Below are positions 19,603 to 42,305 of a stretch of DNA of 64,000 bases, piece by piece. How positions within the stretch are numbered: the first letter of the stretch is position 1; the number at the start of each line of letters is the position of its first letter. The translations under genes were made by a program, and so were the position numbers. The notes beneath the pieces are model-generated. The model saw nothing but the letters and a program-made list of their open reading frames with translations. It searched no databases and had not been told where the DNA came from. The stretch lies in the NCBI RefSeq assembly GCF_009931435.1, contig NZ_CP043414.1. One strand, written 5' to 3'. This DNA comes from Escherichia coli. Lineage in GTDB: Bacteria; Pseudomonadota; Gammaproteobacteria; Enterobacterales; Enterobacteriaceae.

Positions 19603-19678
19603 TGGCTCCTCTGACTGGACTCGAACCAGTGACATACGGATTAACAGTCCGCCGTTCTACCGACTGAACTACAGAGGA
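19603..19678 (-). tRNA. asnV: tRNA-Asn (GUU)
   Basis: Exact 76 nt tRNA-Asn sequence, reverse complement. Confidence 0.95.
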
Positions 19679-22011: not shown

Positions 22012-22087
22012 TGGCTCCTCTGACTGGACTCGAACCAGTGACATACGGATTAACAGTCCGCCGTTCTACCGACTGAACTACAGAGGA
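22012..22087 (-). tRNA. asnU: tRNA-Asn (GUU)
   Basis: Exact tRNA-Asn sequence, reverse complement. Confidence 0.95.
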
Positions 22088-22247
22088 ATCGCTGTTGAGG
22101 CACATCTTAACGGCGAAAAATCTTTTGTCAAACCCGATTTTTAAATTCCCCAACTGTTTGCCGTTTCTATCAACAGTTTGTTGCATTTGCAGACAATTTG
22201 TTGGCGAAAATCTTTGCAGCTTTGCTGATTCTCCCTCATTATTTGAA

Positions 22248-22876
22248 ATGTGGTTTCACTTTCTGCAATTAAGGTCGGCTTTGAATATCTCCTCTGCTTT
22301 ACGTCAGGTTGTTCACGGCACTCGCTGGCACGCTAAACGCAAGAGCTACAAAGTGTTGTTCTGGCGCGAGATAACCCCGCTTGCTGTTCCTATCTTCATG
22401 GAGAATACCTGTGTCCTGTTGATGGGGGTTCTGAGCACTTTTCTGGTCAGCTGGCTGGGAAAAGATGCGATGGCCGGCGTGGGATTGGCGGACAGCTTCA
22501 ATATGGTCATTATGGCTTTTTTTGCTGCTATCGATCTTGGTACTACTGTCGTTGTGGCATTTAGTCTCGGTAAGCGGGATCGACGACGAGCGAGGGTGGC
22601 GACGCGGCAGTCATTGGTGATCATGACGTTGTTTGCCGTACTGTTGGCAACGCTTATTCATCATTTTGGCGAGCAAATTATTGATTTCGTCGCGGGTGAT
22701 GCCACGACAGAAGTTAAAGCACTGGCGTTGACTTATCTGGAGCTGACGGTACTCAGTTATCCAGCAGCTGCCATCACTCTAATTGGTAGCGGGGCACTTC
22801 GTGGTGCAGGGAATACGAAAATACCGCTACTGATTAACGGTAGCCTGAATATTCTTAATATTATTATTAGCGGCAT
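22248..22876 (+). pseudogene. yeeO: yeeO (MATE-family efflux transporter) 5' fragment, interrupted by IS1
   Basis: MWFHFLQLRSALNISSAL... through ...LNILNIIISG, then the reading frame runs into the IS1 terminus. Confidence 0.85.
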
Positions 22877-23313
22877 GGTAATGACTCCAACTTACTGATA
22901 GTGTTTTATGTTCAGATAATGCCCGATGACTTTGTCATGCAGCTCCACCGATTTTGAGAACGACAGTAACTTCCGTCCCAGCCTTGCCAGATGTTGTCTC
23001 AGATTCAGATTATGTCGCTCAATGCGCTGAGTGTAACGCTTGCTGATAACGTGCAGCTTTCCCTTCAGGCGTGATTCATACAGCGGCCAGCCATCCGTCA
23101 TCCATACCACGACCTCAAAGGCCGACAGCAGGCTCAGAAGACGCTCCAGTGTGGCCAGAGTGCGTTCACCGAAAACGTGCGCCACAACTGTCCTCCGTAT
23201 CCTGTCATACGCGTAAAACAGCCAGCGCTGACGTGATTTAGCACCGACGTAGCCCCACTGTTCGTCCATTTCAGCGCAGACAATCACATCACTGCCCGGT
23301 TGTATGCGCGAGG

Positions 23314-25576
<2,263 letters not shown>

Positions 25577-25603
25577 CTAAATCAGTAAGTTGGCAGCATT
25601 ACC

Positions 25604-26471
25604 TAGCGGCATATTGATTTACGGCCTTTTCTCCTGGCCGGGACTGGGATTTGTCGGGGCTGGGTTGGGTTTAACCATTTCTCGTTATATTGGCGCAGTT
25701 GCAATTTTGTGGGTGCTGGCGATTGGTTTTAATCCTGCGCTAAGGATTTCGTTAAAGAGCTATTTTAAACCGCTGAATTTTAGCATTATCTGGGAAGTCA
25801 TGGGGATTGGTATTCCAGCGAGTGTCGAATCAGTGTTATTTACCAGTGGTCGGTTATTAACCCAAATGTTCGTTGCCGGGATGGGGACCAGTGTTATTGC
25901 CGGAAATTTTATCGCGTTTTCAATTGCGGCTCTTATCAACTTACCCGGAAGTGCGCTCGGCTCTGCTTCTACGATCATTACAGGCCGAAGGTTGGGGGTA
26001 GGGCAGATAGCGCAAGCAGAGATTCAGTTGCGGCATGTGTTCTGGCTGTCCACTCTTGGATTAACGGCCATCGCCTGGCTAACGGCTCCCTTTGCCGGGC
26101 TTATGGCATCGTTTTACACCCAGGATCCACAGGTTAAACATGTCGTTGTGATTCTGATTTGGCTAAATGCTTTATTTATGCCTATTTGGTCCGCCTCATG
26201 GGTGCTACCCGCTGGATTTAAAGGTGCTCGTGATGCCCGTTACGCCATGTGGGTTTCGATGTTGAGCATGTGGGGTTGTCGGGTTGTAGTCGGTTATGTG
26301 CTGGGAATCATGCTTGGCTGGGGTGTGGTTGGTGTCTGGATGGGAATGTTTGCCGACTGGGCTGTGCGGGCCGTGCTGTTTTACTGGCGAATGGTTACTG
26401 GACGTTGGCTATGGAAATACCCTCGACCCGAGCCGCAAAAGTGTGAAAAAAAGCCAGTTGTGTCGGAATAA
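25604..26471 (+). pseudogene. yeeO: yeeO 3' fragment (continues in frame after the IS1 duplication)
   Basis: SGILIYGLFSWPGLGFVGAGL... to stop at 26471. Confidence 0.85.
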
Positions 26472-26524
26472 ACGACAAAATGCAGATTATTTCAGCAAAC
26501 GATTTCAAATTTAAAAAACAGGCT

Positions 26525-26553
26525 TTGACATTGTGGGTGGGCATCGCTAATAT
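26525..26553 (+). promoter_or_regulatory. Probable sigma70 promoter of asnW
   Basis: TTGACA (26525-26530), 17 nt spacer, TAATAT (26548-26553), GC-rich discriminator, about 19 nt before the mature tRNA 5' end. Confidence 0.6.
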
Positions 26554-26571
26554 TCGCCTCGTTCTCACGAT

Positions 26572-26647
26572 TCCTCTGTAGTTCAGTCGGTAGAACGGCG
26601 GACTGTTAATCCGTATGTCACTGGTTCGAGTCCAGTCAGAGGAGCCA
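26572..26647 (+). tRNA. asnW: tRNA-Asn (GUU)
   Basis: Exact tRNA-Asn sequence. Confidence 0.95.
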
Positions 26648-27099
26648 AATTTTAGTTTTGAGACATCTCTATGAGTCTCAAAACAGTTAAAAAATAAAAA
26701 TTATTTTTACCCGGTTACCTTGTAAAAAAGTGACCGGGTTTTTTGATTTCTGTGTTTCGTGCGCTTAATCGAGTCTCACGCTTCAGTGAGCAAGTTGCCC
26801 CCCAACAGACATCACGATTCGCAAGGTCAAAAACTCTGTTCCATGAAGTACCGTACAAAGATAAAGAGAAAAATGCCTTATGCGGGATGTCGCTATCGCG
26901 TCTTTATCGGGAAACTATGCGTTATTGCCACTTTGCCTTCTGTAATCAGAAAAAGAAGAACTGGAATTTTAATAAATATTATTTCTCTGGGGACGGGGAT
27001 TTTTTATAATCAATATGACGAGTTGAACATTATATTTTTTATAAGGGTTATATGAGATTAAAGAAATCTGCCGTAAAGACAGATTTCTTTAAAATATAA

Positions 27100-27816
27100 T
27101 TAGAGATTTGCGACGTTATGATAAACTTTTTGTACATCGTCGTCATCTTCAAGGGCATCAACAAGCCCTTCAAAGATTTCTAAATCTTCTGGGGAAAGCT
27201 CAACTTCAGATTGAGCAATCATTTCTAATTCTGTTGTTGAGAACTCAGTGATTCCAGCTGCTTTTAGAGCCGCGATTCCTTTATGAAGGTCAGTAGGTTC
27301 GGTATAAATAACAATGTTACCTTCTTCTTCAGTCACATCACGAACATCAACTTCAGCTTCAAGTAAAATTTCAAAAATATGGTCAGGGTCTGATCCTTTA
27401 AATACAATCACACCCGTATTGTCAAACATATAGCTGACAGAACCTGCCGCTCCGATATTGCCGCCTTTTTTATTGAAAATTGTGCGAACGTTAGCAATCG
27501 TACGGTTAACATTTGAAGTCAATGTCTCGGCGATAATCATTGAGCCATTAGGACCAAAGCCTTCATAACGTCCCTGCACGAACGTTTCATCTCCGCCGCC
27601 TTTGGCTTTATCAATTGCTTTATCAATAACGTGCTTTGGAACTTGTGCCTGCTTTGCACGTTCAATAACGAATTTTAAAGATGTGTTTAATTCTGGATCG
27701 GGTTCACCTTGTTTAGCAGCAGCATAGATTTCTACACCGAATTTTGCATAAATTTTAGACGTTGCACCGTCTTTAGCCGTTTTTTTAGCAACAATATTGG
27801 CCCATTTACGTCCCAC
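27100..27816 (-). CDS. yeeN: YebC/PmpR-family transcriptional regulator
   Basis: 238 aa, [27 protein letters not shown]... Confidence 0.9.
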
Positions 27817-28158
27817 TGGAATGATCTCCTCGAAAATTTATTTACATTACTGGTAAATCGTTAACATGTGTTAATTCGGCATATTATATCATAACAGGAA
27901 AAATCTCGTCTATTAGGAATAAAAATATTCTAAAGCCATAATCTTATATTTAATTTTATAAAAACTTATATTGTTGGCGGGATTTTTTATAATTGTGTTT
28001 TGAAAGCATACTTGCTTTTAATATGTGGAAATCATTAAGACGATAATAAAACACGTATCCGCCCAAGGAAGCAAACAGCCCACGATTATTGCAGGCTATT
28101 TGCCAGGTCTCTTACTTACTCCTTCACATCTATTTCTGATAAGAAGGTTCAGAACTTA

Positions 28159-29613
28159 TTATCGGAACGGCGGCTCATTAAAGGTTCGTAATTTACGCGA
28201 ATGCAGTCGGTCGCCTTCTGCGCGCAGCAAATCGATCGCCCGAATGCCAATTTGCAGATGTTCGGAAATAGCGCCTTCATAAAAACGGTTAGCCTGGCCG
28301 GGAAGTTTAATCTCGCCATGCAACGGTTTATCTGAAACACACAGTAGTGTCCCGTATGGCACGCGGAAACGATATCCTTGCGCGGCAATGGTTGCACTTT
28401 CCATATCAATTGCTACGGCCCGGCTTAAGTTAAAACGAAGTGCAGAAGCTGAGTAACGTAATTCCCAGTTCCTGTCATCTGTGGTTACCACAGTACCAGT
28501 ACGTAGCCGCTGTTTGACTTCCTCACCGGGCCTGCCGCTCACCAGCTTGGTGGCGTCATAAAGCGCACGTTGCACTTCAGCAATGCTCGGAATAGGAATA
28601 TCGGGCGGCAGAACCGCATCAAGAACGTGGTCATCGCGTAAATAAGCGTGTGCAAGTACATAATCGCCAATGGCCTGACTTTCACGTAATCCGCCACAGT
28701 GACCAATCATCAACCAGACATCCGGGCGTAGCACTGCCAGATGATCGCAGATGGTTTTAGCATTTGACGGTCCCACGCCAATATTCACCAGAGTAATACC
28801 CTGACCATTGGCGGTAATTAAATGCCATGCTGGCATCTGATGTTTTTTCCATGCAAGGTCGGAAATGGCTTCTTCTGGCGCTTCGGTTTCGGCGGTGATC
28901 CAGTTCCCGCCAGCACAAGAAAGGGCAATGTAGGGACTATCAGGATCGAGGATCTGGCTGCATCCCCAACGAACGAATTCATCCACATAACGTGTGTAGT
29001 TGGTAAACAAGACGAACGGCTGAAAATGTTCAACTGGCGTACCGGTATAATGGCGCAACCGCGCGAGGGAAAAATCGACGCGGCGCGCATCAAAATGCGA
29101 TAGCGGGGAGAATTCAGTTGGATGATAAATGCCGTCTGCAGTTTCATCGCCAATTTGCGCCAGTTCTGTTGTCGGGAAGTAGCGAGTTAACCCAGCGCTC
29201 ATTGAGCGATCAAGTGTCAATTCAGAGCCATCGATGACATAAGGATAGGGGATTTCATGCTGCGAGGGTTGCACCGAGATATGCGCACCATAATCCTGAT
29301 ACAGCAACGTAAGTTGTTCATTGAGATACGAACGAAAGAGAGTAGGGCGAGTAATCGTGGTGGTGTAGCTGCCTGCGTGAGTAAAACGACCAAATGCGCG
29401 CGTTTTGGGGGGATTGGTTGTGCTACCGTCCCAGGTTACGGTCAGTGATGGATAGACAAAAAGACCTTGTTTGCGGGCGTTTTCATCAGGTAATTCGCCA
29501 CTTGTAATATAGTTGCCAATGGCGTTGCGTAATGCGACTACAGATTGCTCATACAGCGCGTCGAGTTTATCCAGTGCCTGAGCTGGGGTCAGACCGGAGC
29601 CCTTATTATTCAT
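28159..29613 (-). CDS. amn: AMP nucleosidase
   Basis: 484 aa from MNNKGSGLTPAQALDKLDALYEQ...; ORF-track start at 29769 is an upstream over-extension. Confidence 0.9.
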   Translation of the reverse strand: MNNKGSGLTPAQALDKLDALYEQSVVALRNAIGNYITSGELPDENARKQGLFVYPSLTVTWDGSTTNPPKTRAFGRFTHAGSYTTTITRPTLFRSYLNEQLTLLYQDYGAHISVQPSQHEIPYPYVIDGSELTLDRSMSAGLTRYFPTTELAQIGDETADGIYHPTEFSPLSHFDARRVDFSLARLRHYTGTPVEHFQPFVLFTNYTRYVDEFVRWGCSQILDPDSPYIALSCAGGNWITAETEAPEEAISDLAWKKHQMPAWHLITANGQGITLVNIGVGPSNAKTICDHLAVLRPDVWLMIGHCGGLRESQAIGDYVLAHAYLRDDHVLDAVLPPDIPIPSIAEVQRALYDATKLVSGRPGEEVKQRLRTGTVVTTDDRNWELRYSASALRFNLSRAVAIDMESATIAAQGYRFRVPYGTLLCVSDKPLHGEIKLPGQANRFYEGAISEHLQIGIRAIDLLRAEGDRLHSRKLRTFNEPPFR

Positions 29614-29714
29614 GTGTGTCTCCTGTTCCATACAATTACCGCACATCCGATAGTATGTCACAGGAATGTGAAACAAAAGTGTAAGGCGAAGATCGGATGA
29701 TCTTCGCCAGGCTA

Positions 29715-31031
29715 TCAAGCGCGGTGATTGTCTTTCATCAACAAAGCGGTCATTGCGGAAATCAGACATCCAGCCAGCAAATAAATGGCGACGCTATGCC
29801 AGTTCCCGGCAAAGTAAGTGATGAGCGCAGCGGCAATAAAAGGTGTAAATCCACCGCCAACCACACTGGCGACCTGATAACCGACTCCAGCACCACTATA
29901 GCGATAACTGGCACCAAACATTTCGGTAAACATCGGTTGTTGCACACACACCACCATGTCATGCGCAATGTTTGCCAGCATTATGGAGAAGAAAACTATC
30001 CAGAAAATAGATTGTGCTTCAAGCGCCATAAAGAAAGGAAATGCGCTCAACGTTCCGATTAACGCACCTGTGATATAAACCCTGCGGCGACCAAAACGAT
30101 CGGCAAGCCAGGCAAAACAGGGAATTGTCAGGCAGCTTAATCCACCTACCAGCAAACCAATATTGAGGAAAAGTTCGCGCGGTAACCCCATATTCTGGGT
30201 TGAATAATTAAGTGCAAAGGCAGTAACGATGTACATCGTCAGCAATTCGCACAGTCGTAGCGCAATAATCTTCAGGAAAGCACCGGGATGTCGTAACAGC
30301 GCTTCGATAACCGGGATGCGTTTTTTCGCGGCAGCTTGATAATGTTGCTGTTGTTCAAATTCCGCGGACTCCTCCATGCCATTGCGCACCCACAATGCTC
30401 CCAGTACCAGTACGATGCTAAACAGGAAAGGAATGCGCCAGCCCCAGCTTAAAAACTGTTCGTCAGTCGTCATCATACTGATCAATGAAACCAGTCCGGT
30501 TGAAAGCAGTAAACCTACACCGTAGCCAACTTGTACACCGCTACTGTAAAAGGCTTTTTTATTTTTCGGTGCACTTTCAACGGAAAGCAACGCCGCGCCT
30601 CCCCATTCGCCGCCGACGGCAAATCCCTGAATGGCACGCAGTGTCACCAGCAAAATAGGTGCCCACCACCCAATGGTCGAGAATGAAGGAAGAATACCAA
30701 TCAAGGCTGTCGCGATGCCCATCATCCAGACGGTCAGCATTAACATGCGCTTACGTCCCAGTCGGTCGCCAAAGTGACCGAAAATGACACCGCCGAGCGG
30801 ACGGAAAAGAAATCCGACGCCAAAGGTAGCAAATGCGGCGAGCGTTCCCATCGCCGGGCTTACTTGCGGGAAAAACTCGCGATTAAACACCAGTGCGGCG
30901 GTGATGCCATAGAGTAAAAAATCATACCAGTCGACGACGGCACCAGCGAAGCTGCCTAACGCAGCTCGTCGGGCGCGACTTAACGAAAGCGTCCCTTCAT
31001 CGGGACGAGTGGAGATGAGCGTGGAGTCCAT
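29715..31031 (-). CDS. shiA: Shikimate transporter (MFS)
   Basis: 438 aa, MDSTLISTRPDEGTLSLSRARRAALGSFAG... Confidence 0.9.
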   Translation of the reverse strand: MDSTLISTRPDEGTLSLSRARRAALGSFAGAVVDWYDFLLYGITAALVFNREFFPQVSPAMGTLAAFATFGVGFLFRPLGGVIFGHFGDRLGRKRMLMLTVWMMGIATALIGILPSFSTIGWWAPILLVTLRAIQGFAVGGEWGGAALLSVESAPKNKKAFYSSGVQVGYGVGLLLSTGLVSLISMMTTDEQFLSWGWRIPFLFSIVLVLGALWVRNGMEESAEFEQQQHYQAAAKKRIPVIEALLRHPGAFLKIIALRLCELLTMYIVTAFALNYSTQNMGLPRELFLNIGLLVGGLSCLTIPCFAWLADRFGRRRVYITGALIGTLSAFPFFMALEAQSIFWIVFFSIMLANIAHDMVVCVQQPMFTEMFGASYRYSGAGVGYQVASVVGGGFTPFIAAALITYFAGNWHSVAIYLLAGCLISAMTALLMKDNHRA

Positions 31032-31345
31032 AATGATCCTGTTTGTACTGTCTTTTTATAATTAGTATGGAAAAGGTAACTCACATTGCCGTCGATCTAT
31101 AAACGAACCTTATGAGACTACCTCGACAGAGCGCATCTGCAAATGATTTTATGGCTGATTAGCGGCAACATGAAAAATTCGATGGAAGATGAAAGCGCAG
31201 GAGTTGCTGGTGTTGTTTAAGGATTAAGCAGAGGACCCACAGGTTAGAGATATGAAACATAAAAGTCCGCATATGCACAAAATGGCACCCTGATGAGTCT
31301 GATAGACTGCATTGCATTATAACCAGTAGGGAGGCGAGGTTAGGT

Positions 31346-32398
31346 ATGTTTTTAGCATCATTGTTGAGACGTATTGCATTTAGTTACTACGATTATAAAG
31401 CTTATAATTTCAATATTGAAAAAACAGACTTTGTTGTCATCCATATTCCCGATCAGATTGGCGATGCTATGGCCATCTTTCCTGTTATTCGGGCGCTTGA
31501 ATTGCATAAAATTAAGCATCTATTAATTGTTACGTCGACAATTAATTTAGAAGTCTTTAATGTGCTCAAACTTGAACAGACTAAATTAACATTAGTCACA
31601 ATGACTATGCAGGATCACGCAACATTAAAAGAAATAAAAGATTTAGCGAAGAACATAACACAGCAATACGGTACGCCGGATCTTTGTATAGAGGCGATGC
31701 GTAAAAAGAACCTGAAAACGATGTTATTTATCAGTCAGTTGAAAGCAAAAACGAATTTTCAGGTTGTTGGTTTAACCATGAAGTGCTATTCCCCTGTGTG
31801 TAAGAACGCGTCCCGGATGGATCAGAATCTCCGGGCTCCCGTACCCATGACATGGGCATTTATGATTCGTGAGGCGGGTTTTCCAGCAGTCAGGCCAATA
31901 TATGAATTGCCACTAAGTGAGGATGTACTCGATGAGGTGCGCGAGGAAATGCGATCGTTAGGATCTTACATTGCGCTTAATTTAGAAGGTAGCTCGCAGG
32001 AACGTACATTTTCACTATCGATTGCAGAAAATCTAATAGCAAAAATTCAAAGTGAAACAGATATACCAATAGTGATCGCTCATGGACCAAAAGGGGAAGA
32101 TAAAGCCAGGGTATTAGTGGATTGTTATAATAATGTCTACCGTTTATCCTTATCACCCTCGATTAAACGTTCAGCAGCAATCATAAAAGATGCTTATATC
32201 GCAATAACTCATGACACTTCAATATTACATATGGCAAGTGCCTATAATACCCCCGTTGTTGCAATTTATGCTGATTACAAAACGCGATGGCCCGCAATGG
32301 CCGATGTTTCGGAGTCAGTCGTCGTTGGGCAAAAAATTGACAATATAAGTCTGGATGAATTCGCAAAGGCATTAAAAAGTGTTTTGGCGAGAATATGA
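31346..32398 (+). CDS. yeeL: Glycosyltransferase family 9 (heptosyltransferase-like) protein, intact 350 aa ORF
   Basis: Position between shiA and yeeJ; GT9-like C-terminal region (ITHDTSILHMASAYNTPVVAIY). Confidence 0.7.
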   Translation: MFLASLLRRIAFSYYDYKAYNFNIEKTDFVVIHIPDQIGDAMAIFPVIRALELHKIKHLLIVTSTINLEVFNVLKLEQTKLTLVTMTMQDHATLKEIKDLAKNITQQYGTPDLCIEAMRKKNLKTMLFISQLKAKTNFQVVGLTMKCYSPVCKNASRMDQNLRAPVPMTWAFMIREAGFPAVRPIYELPLSEDVLDEVREEMRSLGSYIALNLEGSSQERTFSLSIAENLIAKIQSETDIPIVIAHGPKGEDKARVLVDCYNNVYRLSLSPSIKRSAAIIKDAYIAITHDTSILHMASAYNTPVVAIYADYKTRWPAMADVSESVVVGQKIDNISLDEFAKALKSVLARI

Positions 32399-32659
32399 GA
32401 CAGTACTTATGCATAGTAATGCCGATCTGTTATGAACGGTGGTGTCATCAATACTCTGAGGCTGGTCAATCATCACAGAAAACCAGCCTTTAGATCAAAG
32501 CAGTACTCACCGAAAATGATCATAGTCACATCGAACGCGATTCTGGCGGTGCCGCATTTTTATTTATTCATTTTCTGTGAGAGAAGGGCTAGTTCTGTAG
32601 AGGGAATGTAAAAAAGAGTGCCCCGAATGGAACACTCTTTAAGAAATTATAACGGAAAA

Positions 32660-39736
<7,077 letters not shown>

Positions 39737-40048
39737 GCTTACCTTCCCTGAACGAGCTAACATAAATGCGCCCTTTCTAGCACAGCGAAAAAATGTAAAT
39801 ACTGATAGCAATATGATTGAAAATTAATAACTTTTCGTTAGGCAGTTTTGGGTGTGAGTTGCAAGAGGGGAGACTACTGAATAACTCAAGTTTTATAATC
39901 GAGGGGAAAATGGTGATGGCGTTCATAGCAAAACGCCCTCAACCATAAAGGTCGAGGGCGCTTAAGATGTTAAAAACCCGCTATCCGTTAAAAAACAATG
40001 TTCAACTAAGGTCAGTGACATTGCGCTAAAAAGCGAATTTTTAGAATT

Positions 40049-40124
40049 TGGCTCCTCTGACTGGACTCGAACCAGTGACATACGGATTAACAGTCCGCCG
40101 TTCTACCGACTGAACTACAGAGGA
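40049..40124 (-). tRNA. asnT: tRNA-Asn (GUU)
   Basis: Exact tRNA-Asn sequence, reverse complement. Confidence 0.95.
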
Positions 40125-40224
40125 ATCGTGTGAACGGGGCGCATATTACTTAGCGGTACCTTGTCTGTCAACACTAAATTTCATAAGTCATTTCAATTGG
40201 TTAATTAATCTGCAAAGTTGTTAA

Positions 40225-41022
40225 TTAATGAACATTCGTCGCCGAAAACGAGTCTGTATCATTAGCGTGATGCAGTCTCTGCAAAGGATCTTGTTGATAA
40301 AATTGGCAGAAACGTTGCCACAATGAAGGGAAACGAGGAGCAAAAAGTTCTGGGGCGCTAAAGAAATATTCAGAAAGTACGGCAAAACATTCAGCAGGAT
40401 CGCTGGCTGCATAAGCATCAATGCTCGCCGCATTCTCGCCAACCAATTCGATTTCTTCCTGAATGTTGTTCATTGCAGCATGAAGATCGTGTTCCCAGCC
40501 AGCAACCTCACGCAACGGAATAAAGGGAACTCCGCTGGCGCGATCGCCGTTACGGGTGTCCAGCTTATGAGCGACTTCATGAATAATCAGGTTAAAACCA
40601 GAAGCATCAAAAGAATCTTGTATATCCAACCAGTTCAAAACGATAGGCCCTTGCTGCCAGCTCTGACCTGACTGAACAATACGTTGGTTATGCACCAGAC
40701 CGATATCGTCTTCCCATTCATCATCGACCACAAATGGCGCAGGATAAATTAAGACTTCATGAAAACCATCCAGCCATTCCAGTCCTAACTCCAGAACGGG
40801 TAGGCAAAATAGAAGTGCTATCCGGCAGCTTCTTAATGAATCCAGTTCAAAGCCCTGTAAAGGAACAAGCCGCTTTTGCTGTAAAAAACGTTCGGCAAGA
40901 GTGACTAATTTGCTTTGTTCCTGTTCCGTCAGACACGTTAAAAGGGGGATCGATAGTGCTTCCTGCCAGGGAAGGGCAGTTTGATGTGCTGATTCTTGTA
41001 CTTTCCAGGGCCACTTAATCAT
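40225..41022 (-). CDS. mtfA: Mlc titration factor A (DgsA anti-repressor)
   Basis: 265 aa from [20 protein letters not shown]...; HEVAH zinc-peptidase motif. Confidence 0.9.
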
Positions 41023-41115
41023 CGTTTTGCTCGCAAACTCGTCACTTGAACAAAATTGCACGGACAGGGACTGTTAAAATGCCAAATTTCCTGGCATCAT
41101 GGCAACCATCTGAAC

Positions 41116-41205
41116 GGAGAGATGCCGGAGCGGCTGAACGGACCGGTCTCGAAAACCGGAGTAGGGGCAACTCTACCGGGGGTTCAAATCCCCCTCTCTC
41201 CGCCA
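41116..41205 (+). tRNA. serU: tRNA-Ser (CGA)
   Basis: 90 nt ggagagatgccggagcggctgaacggaccggtctcgaaaaccgg...cgcca with long variable arm. Confidence 0.9.
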
Positions 41206-41774
41206 CTTTATCAATGACTTATCTCCCGACTTCCCGCCTTGCTTTTCCTAAACAGAACAATCGTAGAATATTCTTGAAGGGTTAGATCGTCACTGTTTTC
41301 TGTTCGATACTGTGACATTCAGCACTTGATTCGCTATGGATCTGACAGGAAGCTTTCGAGCGAAAATGTGCAGTTATTCAGTCGTTTTCTTATCGCTCAC
41401 CATTATTCTTTTAGACATTCATCCTATGAAACTGCCGCAAAGTTGGTGGTGGGAACTGAAGTTGCGTAGAGAAGGGTTCAATAATTGAGTCAAAAAAGGA
41501 ACGCGGCCGTCAGATTAAAGCCGCGGGACAAAGTCCATAATTTCCAAGAGTTGTTGAATTTCCCAGCTTTTTTGAAAGCCTTTGTATCATACTAACAAGT
41601 AAAAAAGGTTTAAATACCAAAATTAACCTGTATTTTTGATAAGTCTTACCATTGTACGATTTACACAGTTTCTGCTCCTCCTTGTTGATAGTGGAAAGGG
41701 TGCATTGTGCACTTGCGTAAACATTTATGACGCGTTGATGTCCATGGTTCACATTTCCTTGTCAGGGGATCGAC

Positions 41775-42305
41775 TTATTTGCGGCGAGGCATCATTCGTA
41801 ACAGAGTATTATCTTTCTGAATGTAGTGATGAAAGAGTGCTGCGCCAGCGTGAGCTGCGATTAAAAAGTAACCTATATTTGCCCAGGTTTCGTGAATATT
41901 TTTTATCAGTGCTTTAATTTCGCTGTTTGGGGTAACAAAGGGAGACACATTGAAACCAAGGAAACTCCACGATTTTCCACTGTAAGCCATCAAAGCAATC
42001 CCCAGCAGAGGAAGTGCAAGGAAGGTTATATAAAGCATGATGTGCATTAGCGAAGCCGCTTTCATTTGCCAGGCAGGTGGCGGTGGCACAATAGAAGGAT
42101 CACTATAACGGTGTTTTATAATCAGGCGTGAAAACATTAACACCCAAACGAATATACCCGCATTGTAATGTGTTTCTCGCATCAGCAGATAAGTACTACT
42201 ACCTTTAGGAAACCAGCCACGGAGTTCCATCGCGGCATAGGTTATTGCAACGAAAAGCAGCGTTATCCAATGTAAATAAATTTGAGTTTTTGAGAATCGG
42301 TTCAT
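41775..42305 (-). CDS. yodB: Cytochrome b561 homolog
   Basis: 176 aa from MNRFSKTQIYLHWITLLFVA... Confidence 0.85.
   Translation of the reverse strand: MNRFSKTQIYLHWITLLFVAITYAAMELRGWFPKGSSTYLLMRETHYNAGIFVWVLMFSRLIIKHRYSDPSIVPPPPAWQMKAASLMHIMLYITFLALPLLGIALMAYSGKSWSFLGFNVSPFVTPNSEIKALIKNIHETWANIGYFLIAAHAGAALFHHYIQKDNTLLRMMPRRK

Follow-up and report, generated by a model that had tools for sequence, protein, structure and literature searches.

An intact yeeL gene of Escherichia coli encodes a putative, strongly diverged family 9 glycosyltransferase that is probably not coupled to the adhesin gene yeeJ

Results and discussion

We analysed the yeeL gene in a stretch of 64,000 nt of Escherichia coli DNA (assembly GCF_009931435.1, contig NZ_CP043414.1; hereafter the window) and found that it is very probably an ordinary, intact gene of glycosyltransferase family 9 (GT9) that is not coupled to the neighbouring adhesin gene yeeJ. 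The fuller explanation that we favour, in which this uncoupled GT9 protein acts on an acceptor of the lipopolysaccharide (LPS) type, blends a well-supported part with a more tentative one, and as a whole we consider it fairly likely.

Genomic context and reading frame of yeeL

The yeeL frame is open from an ATG start to a TGA stop at 32396-32398 on the plus strand (Table 1), as described in an earlier sequence-only reading of this DNA, which had reported an uninterrupted ORF of 350 aa. The start codon matches the starts of orthologs from other genera in the alignment. The GC content of the gene was 38.8%, against ~50% for its neighbours. Genes in the window follow the order amn (-), shiA (-), yeeL (+) and yeeJ (-), which is the K-12 order on the opposite strand. 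yeeL had been read as divergent from yeeJ; the two genes are actually convergent, the arrangement also given for yeeJ/yeeL_1 in a published table (PMC4390576), and the divergent partner of yeeL is shiA. The 3' ends of yeeL and yeeJ are 261 bp apart and a terminator-like hairpin lies in the spacer, so the two genes cannot be co-transcribed. The likely start of yeeJ is Met26 of the listed ORF (window position 39736), which gives a protein of 2358 aa, as in WP_010723107.1. A sigma-70 consensus scan of the plus strand of the shiA/yeeL intergenic region returned zero promoter-like matches upstream of yeeL and was uninformative, while an Rfam scan of positions 26000-42000 returned tRNAs only.

Table 1. 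Features of the yeeL locus, with positions counted from the first nucleotide of the window.
Feature	Position	Strand	Description
shiA (shikimate transporter)	29715..31031	-	Divergent neighbour of yeeL, context only; from the ORF list and the annotation of orthologous loci
Intergenic region shiA/yeeL	31032..31345	.	Divergent, 314 bp; presumed site of the yeeL promoter
Shine-Dalgarno-like GAGG	31336..31339	+	6 nt 5' of the yeeL ATG; read from the sequence
yeeL CDS	31346..32398	+	350 aa, uninterrupted; predicted family-9 (GT-B) glycosyltransferase
Codon of D40	31463..31465	+	Candidate catalytic base in the invariant HIPDQIGD motif; paired with WaaC D13 by hhalign
Codon 235	32048..32050	+	CAA (Gln) in the window, TAA (stop) in K-12
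Codon 289	32210..32212	+	CAT (His) in the window, CCT (Pro) in other alleles; rare private change beside the putative active-site Asp D290
D290-T291-S-I-L-H295	32213..32230	+	Putative GT9 C-terminal donor-binding signature; aligned to WaaC D261-T262...H266
Terminator-like hairpin	32613..32640	-	12-bp stem followed by a T-run, just past the yeeJ stop; consensus scan, presumed terminator
yeeJ (inverse autotransporter adhesin)	32660..39811	-	Convergent neighbour, context only; longest ORF, K-12 annotation

yeeL in K-12 and in other E. coli genomes

The window gene belongs to the yeeL ortholog group, with the same locus, a collinear full-length alignment and the gene order amn-shiA-yeeL-yeeJ. The orthologous position of K-12 MG1655 holds yeeL (b4497), which carries a pseudogene annotation, and the DH1 copy is flagged 'internal stop' in RefSeq. 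The K-12 and window genes are both 1053 bp long and differ by 32 nt, with no indels and no frameshift (97% nucleotide identity); this alignment, which the sequence-only reading had proposed as a check on itself, revealed neither an internal stop nor a frameshift in the window copy. At the protein level, the comparison with MG1655 and DH1 gave one nonsense codon (Q235*) and 14 substitutions. Besides Q235*, which is the sole disabling lesion of the gene, K-12 has the private changes A117G, Y148F, R157S and S270P. Calling the K-12 gene a split pseudogene was thus right about its status and about its old naming, since a former annotation split it into yeeL_1 and yeeL_2 (PMC4390576), but the cause is this single stop and no frameshift is involved.

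We found the yeeL locus in 5284 of the 5426 complete E. coli genomes. To count alleles we used 55-mers centred on the variable base (position 28), since any 28-nt megablast seed must then cover it. The sense CAA allele of codon 235 was present in 4148 of the 5426 genomes and the K-12 TAA allele in 771, many of them K-12 derivatives. The window yeeL is the common allele in the ancestral state, and E. coli normally carries the gene intact. The suggestion that this strain keeps a functional glycosyltransferase holds for the intact GT9 frame, whose activity is putative, but not for any special retention of the gene.

Among 15 annotated genomes that we inspected, 11 had an intact yeeL (350-aa CDS), and the other 4 were each broken in a different way, by the K-12 stop, a frameshift (CFSAN061771) or IS-associated truncations (E2855 and TUM12355, two genomes that we chose on purpose among the lowest-ranked hits). 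An IS1 insertion was also found in yeeL of one ST131 genome. Inactivation of yeeL has occurred repeatedly in E. coli; besides the K-12 stop and a frameshift, the lesions include IS1, IS1203 and IS-associated truncations.

The protein cluster of 350 aa named "glycosyltransferase family 9 protein [Escherichia coli]" has 10,923 member sequences, and the window YeeL is identical to WP_001532986.1 (strain 88COLEC). RefSeq clusters under the name 'glycosyltransferase family 9 protein' (e.g. WP_001532986.1, WP_000480517.1) are known yeeL products. Public annotation already records the gene, assigns it to GT9 and marks it as a pseudogene in K-12, and the window copy carries little weight as a discovery, being a known, widespread gene in its usual state.

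Assignment of YeeL to glycosyltransferase family 9

An HMM search matched the PF01075 (Glyco_transf_9) domain to residues 234-321 of YeeL with 28.5 bits, above the gathering cut-off of 22, which bears out the heptosyltransferase-like C-terminal region noted earlier. A profile search against PDB sequences gave only a marginal match to WaaC (E = 0.07), and a comparison of folds was therefore needed. The AlphaFold2 model of YeeL, built with 24 homologs, had a mean pLDDT of 85 and a pTM of 0.83, and only residues 142-162 were poorly defined. According to this model, YeeL would adopt the GT-B fold of two Rossmann-like lobes seen in the nearest solved GT9 structures, and Foldseek agreed. The solved structures of known function that are nearest to the model are LPS heptosyltransferases, and hhalign of YeeL against WaaC/WaaF/WaaU gave a probability of 95.7%.

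Both GT9 motifs were recognised in YeeL. In the N-terminal half, G39-D40 is invariant in both family alignments and aligns with WaaC G12-D13, where D13 is the catalytic base; in the autotransporter heptosyltransferase TibC, the catalytic base is D110 of the N-terminal G-D motif (PMC4358343). In the C-terminal D-(T/S)-x-x-x-H motif, D290 and H295 stayed invariant even when WaaC and WaaF were added to the alignment.

The identity of YeeL to WaaC (HepI, PDB 2h1h) and WaaF (HepII, PDB 1psw) was only 12-14%, and 14-15% to a GT9 protein of Veillonella parvula (PDB 3tov) whose entry title carries no function. Unlike WaaC and WaaF, YeeL has an N-terminal extension of ~27 residues (helix) with an invariant D16-Y17, which occurs only in the YeeL family, and a family-specific insert, the poorly modelled residues 142-162. 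It is also encoded outside the waa (rfa) core cluster, as an orphan between shiA and yeeJ, whereas the K-12 waa cluster is located elsewhere. YeeL scored far under the cut-offs of the NCBIfam equivalogs for the LPS heptosyltransferases HepI/HepII/HepIII (TIGR02193, 38.7 vs 185.3; TIGR02195, 20.4 vs 134.6; TIGR02201, 17.6 vs 170.2), so neither the donor nor the acceptor can be read from homology. YeeL is thus a true, enzyme-like member of GT9, although a strongly diverged one, and the ortholog of no characterised heptosyltransferase.

Selection on yeeL and the allele of the window

Seven intact yeeL alleles had 43 synonymous and 35 nonsynonymous segregating sites, where 78% nonsynonymous sites are expected under neutrality (p = 1.7e-10). 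The mean dN/dS among E. coli alleles was 0.20 for yeeL and 0.047 for shiA. The gene is constrained, as the nonsynonymous deficit indicates, but only weakly, with a dN/dS four times as high as in shiA.

The window allele has four private nonsynonymous changes (A73V, M174I, V245A and P289H) and no private synonymous change; if dN/dS equals the gene-wide 0.2, four out of four has p ~0.03 by our own arithmetic, which is suggestive only. Three of these changes, M174I, V245A and P289H, strike positions that are invariant in 21 out of 21 non-E. coli orthologs, and Pro also occupies position 289 in each of the 17 other YeeL-like sequences, which reach down to 24% identity. Because P289H, M174I and V245A alter residues that are otherwise invariant, the activity of the window allele is uncertain, and an open frame does not establish function for the yeeL of this strain.

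These changes, one of which lies beside D290, would fit a gene that is intact in frame yet effectively non-functional or decaying in the window lineage, a pseudogene-in-waiting, and so would the repeated loss of yeeL in E. coli, its low GC content and the lack of a promoter match. We consider such decay unlikely, however. Four changes do not suffice for a firm test and are also compatible with chance or adaptation, and the residue before D-T varies across GT9 as a whole (WaaC has V, WaaF has N). Moreover, the H289 allele was found in 56 of the 5426 genomes, the identical protein persists in at least 56 genomes from varied hosts, and the frame is still open with the remaining catalytic motifs untouched.

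Distant relatives and the putative acceptor of YeeL

With one genome taken per species, the YeeL family outside E. coli was found only in Escherichia spp., Hafnia paralvei, Pseudocitrobacter, Erwinia, Pantoea coffeiphila and Rosenbergiella; it is conserved at 52-73% identity with ~95 invariant columns across six genera. At the loci examined, the yeeL genes of Enterobacterales are orphans without LPS genes or informative neighbours. A conserved-neighbour search over 12 representative loci recovered only a local synteny in Erwiniaceae (a LysR regulator and an aldo-keto reductase) and nothing related to glycans or adhesins. In E. coli, Erwinia and Rosenbergiella, yeeL has an MFS transporter gene as a neighbour (shiA in E. 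coli), and we considered a conserved GT9-MFS pair; the candidate was discarded, as the Erwinia transporter has no significant similarity to the other two.

An exhaustive profile search recovered full-length relatives of YeeL at 24-34% identity (131-289 bits), which score 28-52 bits against PF01075 and share with YeeL the N-terminal D-Y, the IGD and the (S/T)-P-D-T motifs. In contrast to the orphan genes of Enterobacterales, these distant relatives are located in glycan/LPS clusters or form part of a ligase fusion. In particular, P0107 (Carnimonas bestiolae, WP_435631030.1) and the metagenomic P0109 and P0256 are in clusters that also contain transferases of the GT1, GT2 or WecG type, Wzy_C genes of the O-antigen-ligase family and an initiating phosphoglycosyl transferase (Bac_transf), and P0114 is paired with a GT8 that resembles an LPS alpha-galactosyltransferase. 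In P0135/P0265 a Wzy_C domain is fused to the YeeL-like GT9 domain, at a locus that also encodes an LpxL-like acyltransferase and two proteins that score above their NCBIfam cut-offs, HldE and ADP-glyceromanno-heptose 6-epimerase. A further relative, P0257, is an orphan.

By analogy with the clusters and the ligase fusion of these relatives, and with WaaC and WaaF as structural neighbours, the acceptor of YeeL may be lipid-linked and of the LPS type, to which we give slightly less than an even chance; as the enterobacterial genes have no LPS neighbours, the argument draws on relatives of only 24-34% identity. YeeL could instead be an active GT9 enzyme that acts on something other than the LPS core or YeeJ, for example a small molecule, a lipid carrier-linked intermediate or a different envelope glycan. 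The orphan state of the gene, with no conserved partner genes in Enterobacterales, is consistent with this, as are the family-specific N-terminal extension with D16-Y17, the 142-162 insert and the very low scores against the LPS heptosyltransferase equivalogs. We nevertheless regard it as decidedly unlikely, because the distant relatives recur in LPS-type clusters and in the ligase fusion, and because the nearest structures of known function are LPS heptosyltransferases.

With an LPS-type acceptor, YeeL would be a cytoplasmic GT-B enzyme made from a single-gene, AT-rich orphan locus. It would take a nucleotide-activated sugar, most likely ADP-heptose as in WaaC and WaaF, and transfer it with inversion to a lipid-linked acceptor of the LPS-core type at the cytoplasmic face of the inner membrane. 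The outcome would be a dispensable, strain-variable modification of the envelope that could not be expressed in K-12, and YeeL would not be a dedicated YeeJ-modifying enzyme. It is possible, although somewhat doubtful, that YeeL adds a strain-variable substituent to the LPS core that work based on K-12 has overlooked; this is still likelier than protein glycosylation. In the papers retrieved we found no biochemical or genetic data on YeeL; they use the K-12 gene solely as a neutral site for integration, as a deletion or to mark a position. YeeL has residual value as a small uncharacterised GT9 clade and, given that its distant relatives are in LPS clusters, is an inexpensive candidate for an envelope modification of wild E. 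coli that has gone unrecognised.

Relation of YeeL to YeeJ and to autotransporter heptosyltransferases

The sequence-only reading had proposed that YeeL could modify YeeJ or another surface target, in analogy to the autotransporter heptosyltransferases, and neither the role in modifying YeeJ nor the analogy was sustained. Enzymes of the BAHT type (TibC, Aah) carry a beta-barrel at the N-terminus (residues 1-97), a thumb formed by a beta-hairpin, and an iron finger (Cys339/342/358/370), and they assemble into a dodecamer; they recognise the beta-helix of classical autotransporters, and heptose stereoselectivity is set by Pro-300 of TibC (PMC4358343). YeeL P289 may be a counterpart of this proline. 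In the YeeL model the N-terminus is predicted to form a helix (residues 2-13) followed by the first Rossmann strand (beta-1, 29-33), and not a beta-barrel. The only Cys residues of YeeL are at positions 114, 147, 152 and 260, and C260, the sole one in the C-lobe, is not conserved, which leaves the protein without a four-Cys iron finger. We also considered a metal site like the TibC iron finger made from C114, C147 and C152, which are invariant in close orthologs, and rejected it, as all three are outside the C-lobe and the wider family has lost C152 and, in part, C147. The YeeL family profile gave no sequence match to the TibC chains (PDB 4rap) at E <= 1, and in the structure comparison the YeeL model appeared closer to the LPS GT9 enzymes than to TibC.

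Genetic coupling to a cognate autotransporter was not observed for yeeL, and the presence and integrity of yeeL are independent of yeeJ. We searched full-length YeeJ by tblastn against 26 yeeL loci with as much as 10 kb of sequence to either side, and no YeeJ-like gene was found in the 25 loci that are not of the E. coli type; the lone match was in L021, an E. coli-type contig. The orthologs without a yeeJ close by come from other Escherichia species, Hafnia, Pseudocitrobacter, Erwinia, Pantoea and Rosenbergiella. Within E. coli, 7 of the 11 sampled genomes with an intact yeeL had a frameshifted or remnant yeeJ, and the truncated-match pattern of remnant-yeeJ loci appeared in 17 out of 40 evenly spaced rows of the E. 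coli locus search. The reverse case, an intact yeeJ with a dead yeeL, was found in K-12 and CFSAN061771. An intact yeeJ is reported in only 35-40% of complete genomes (PMC6714894; PMC5595812), in comparison with ~97% for the yeeL locus in our search. YeeJ is located at the surface and promotes biofilm in MG1655 (PMC5595812), a strain with the yeeL stop, and its passenger consists of Ig-like repeats (PMC6714894). The literature on YeeJ contained no mention of glycosylation.

That YeeL would act in the cytoplasm, ahead of export, to O-glycosylate YeeJ or some other surface protein, in the way that Aah modifies AIDA-I and TibC modifies TibA, finds encouragement in the GT9 family, which is the CAZy family of TibC and Aah, and in the adhesin gene that adjoins yeeL in E. 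coli, but it is very improbable in view of the convergent genes with a hairpin between them, the loci without a YeeJ-like gene, the 7 genomes with yeeL intact and yeeJ dead and the 2 with the opposite state, a YeeJ that functions in MG1655 without YeeL, the lack of the barrel, thumb and iron finger and of a TibC match, and a passenger of Ig-like repeats where TibC-type enzymes target a beta-helix (PMC4358343; PMC6714894). We find it equally hard to credit that YeeL is a cytoplasmic protein glycosyltransferase of a non-BAHT kind that decorates YeeJ or another envelope protein and is hidden in K-12 by Q235*. If YeeL did decorate YeeJ, this would be the first glycosylated inverse autotransporter. 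The value of the present comparison is corrective: it sets right the orientation of yeeL and yeeJ, and it leaves the account of a glycosyltransferase beside its adhesin unsupported by comparative genomics and by the published work on K-12 YeeJ.

Gene order outside the window is in line with an ordinary yeeL that is uncoupled from yeeJ. In E. albertii, yeeL is located between tonB and yciA. The order in Pseudocitrobacter is amn-shiA-yeeL-mtfA, and in Escherichia sp. MOD1-EC7003 mtfA lies ~600 bp past yeeL; as yeeL abuts mtfA in both, yeeJ looks like a later insertion at asnT, beside a yeeL that was already there.

Alleles of yeeL and its neighbours in E. coli and Shigella

The closest match to the window was the corresponding locus of strain 88COLEC (L002), which encodes an identical YeeL protein. 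The neighbours of the gene differed between the two: shiA and yeeJ are both intact in the window, whereas both are broken in 88COLEC, where IS1A interrupts shiA and yeeJ is frameshifted. We also found E. coli YeeL variants of 346 aa (database proteins P0012–P0032) that carry an in-frame deletion of four codons and keep the reading frame. The deletion lies in the 'SEDVLDEV' segment, around residues 199–202 of the window protein, in a surface helix between the two lobes of YeeL. In the Shigella sonnei clusters (P0041, P0046 and P0089), thousands of YeeL entries were labelled 'partial' (200–297 aa), which suggests that in this lineage yeeL is either disrupted by IS elements or falls at contig breaks.

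Location of yeeL homologs in other Escherichia

The E. albertii homolog (66% identity; L008, 9001–10059) was located between tonB and yciA, away from the shiA locus, and therefore the YeeL family has moved or was independently acquired within Escherichia. Homologs with 71–72% identity were found in four further loci from Escherichia sp. and E. coli E69-type (L009, L024, L035 and L041), all with the gene order hchA-GT9-mtfA(-)-shiA-amn and with yeeJ absent from the locus. This arrangement fits an inverted mtfA-yeeL segment as compared with K-12.

Contig L021 (JARKOR010000252.1), which bears the label of a 'Candidatus Nanosynbacter' MAG, contains amn-shiA-yeeL-yeeJ, with proteins 97–99% identical to those of E. 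coli; contamination during binning almost certainly explains its presence in this MAG. The nr entry P0076, 'glutathione transporter [Rattus norvegicus]', showed 75% identity to YeeL across 88% of its length; bacterial contamination or incorrect annotation is the likely cause.

Fusion of YeeL-like GT9 and Wzy_C domains

In P0265 and P0135 (777–780 aa; L047, 8001–10343), a Wzy_C domain of the O-antigen-ligase family was fused to a YeeL-like GT9 domain. In L047 the fusion forms part of an LPS-core locus that also contains HldE, ADP-heptose 6-epimerase and an LpxL-like gene. Such a fusion is a 'Rosetta-stone' link between the ligase and GT9.

Split MatE-family gene and tRNA genes in the window

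At the yeeO position (window 22095–26471), the MatE-family gene consists of two separated halves, with an IS21-family element between them. One of the four tRNA-Asn(GTT) genes, asnT (window 40049–40124), reported as a hotspot of DNA insertion (PMC5595812), sits immediately past the yeeJ start.

Coordinates of the split MatE-family gene, the IS21-family element and the tRNA genes in the window
Feature	Position	Domain
MatE-family gene, N-terminal half	22095–22898	
IstA-like protein of IS21-family element	23661–24683	rve integrase core
IstB protein of IS21-family element	24680–25462	
MatE-family gene, C-terminal half	25590–26471	
tRNA-Asn(GTT) (four) and tRNA-Ser(CGA) (one)	19603–19678, 22012–22087, 26572–26647, 40049–40124, 41116–41205
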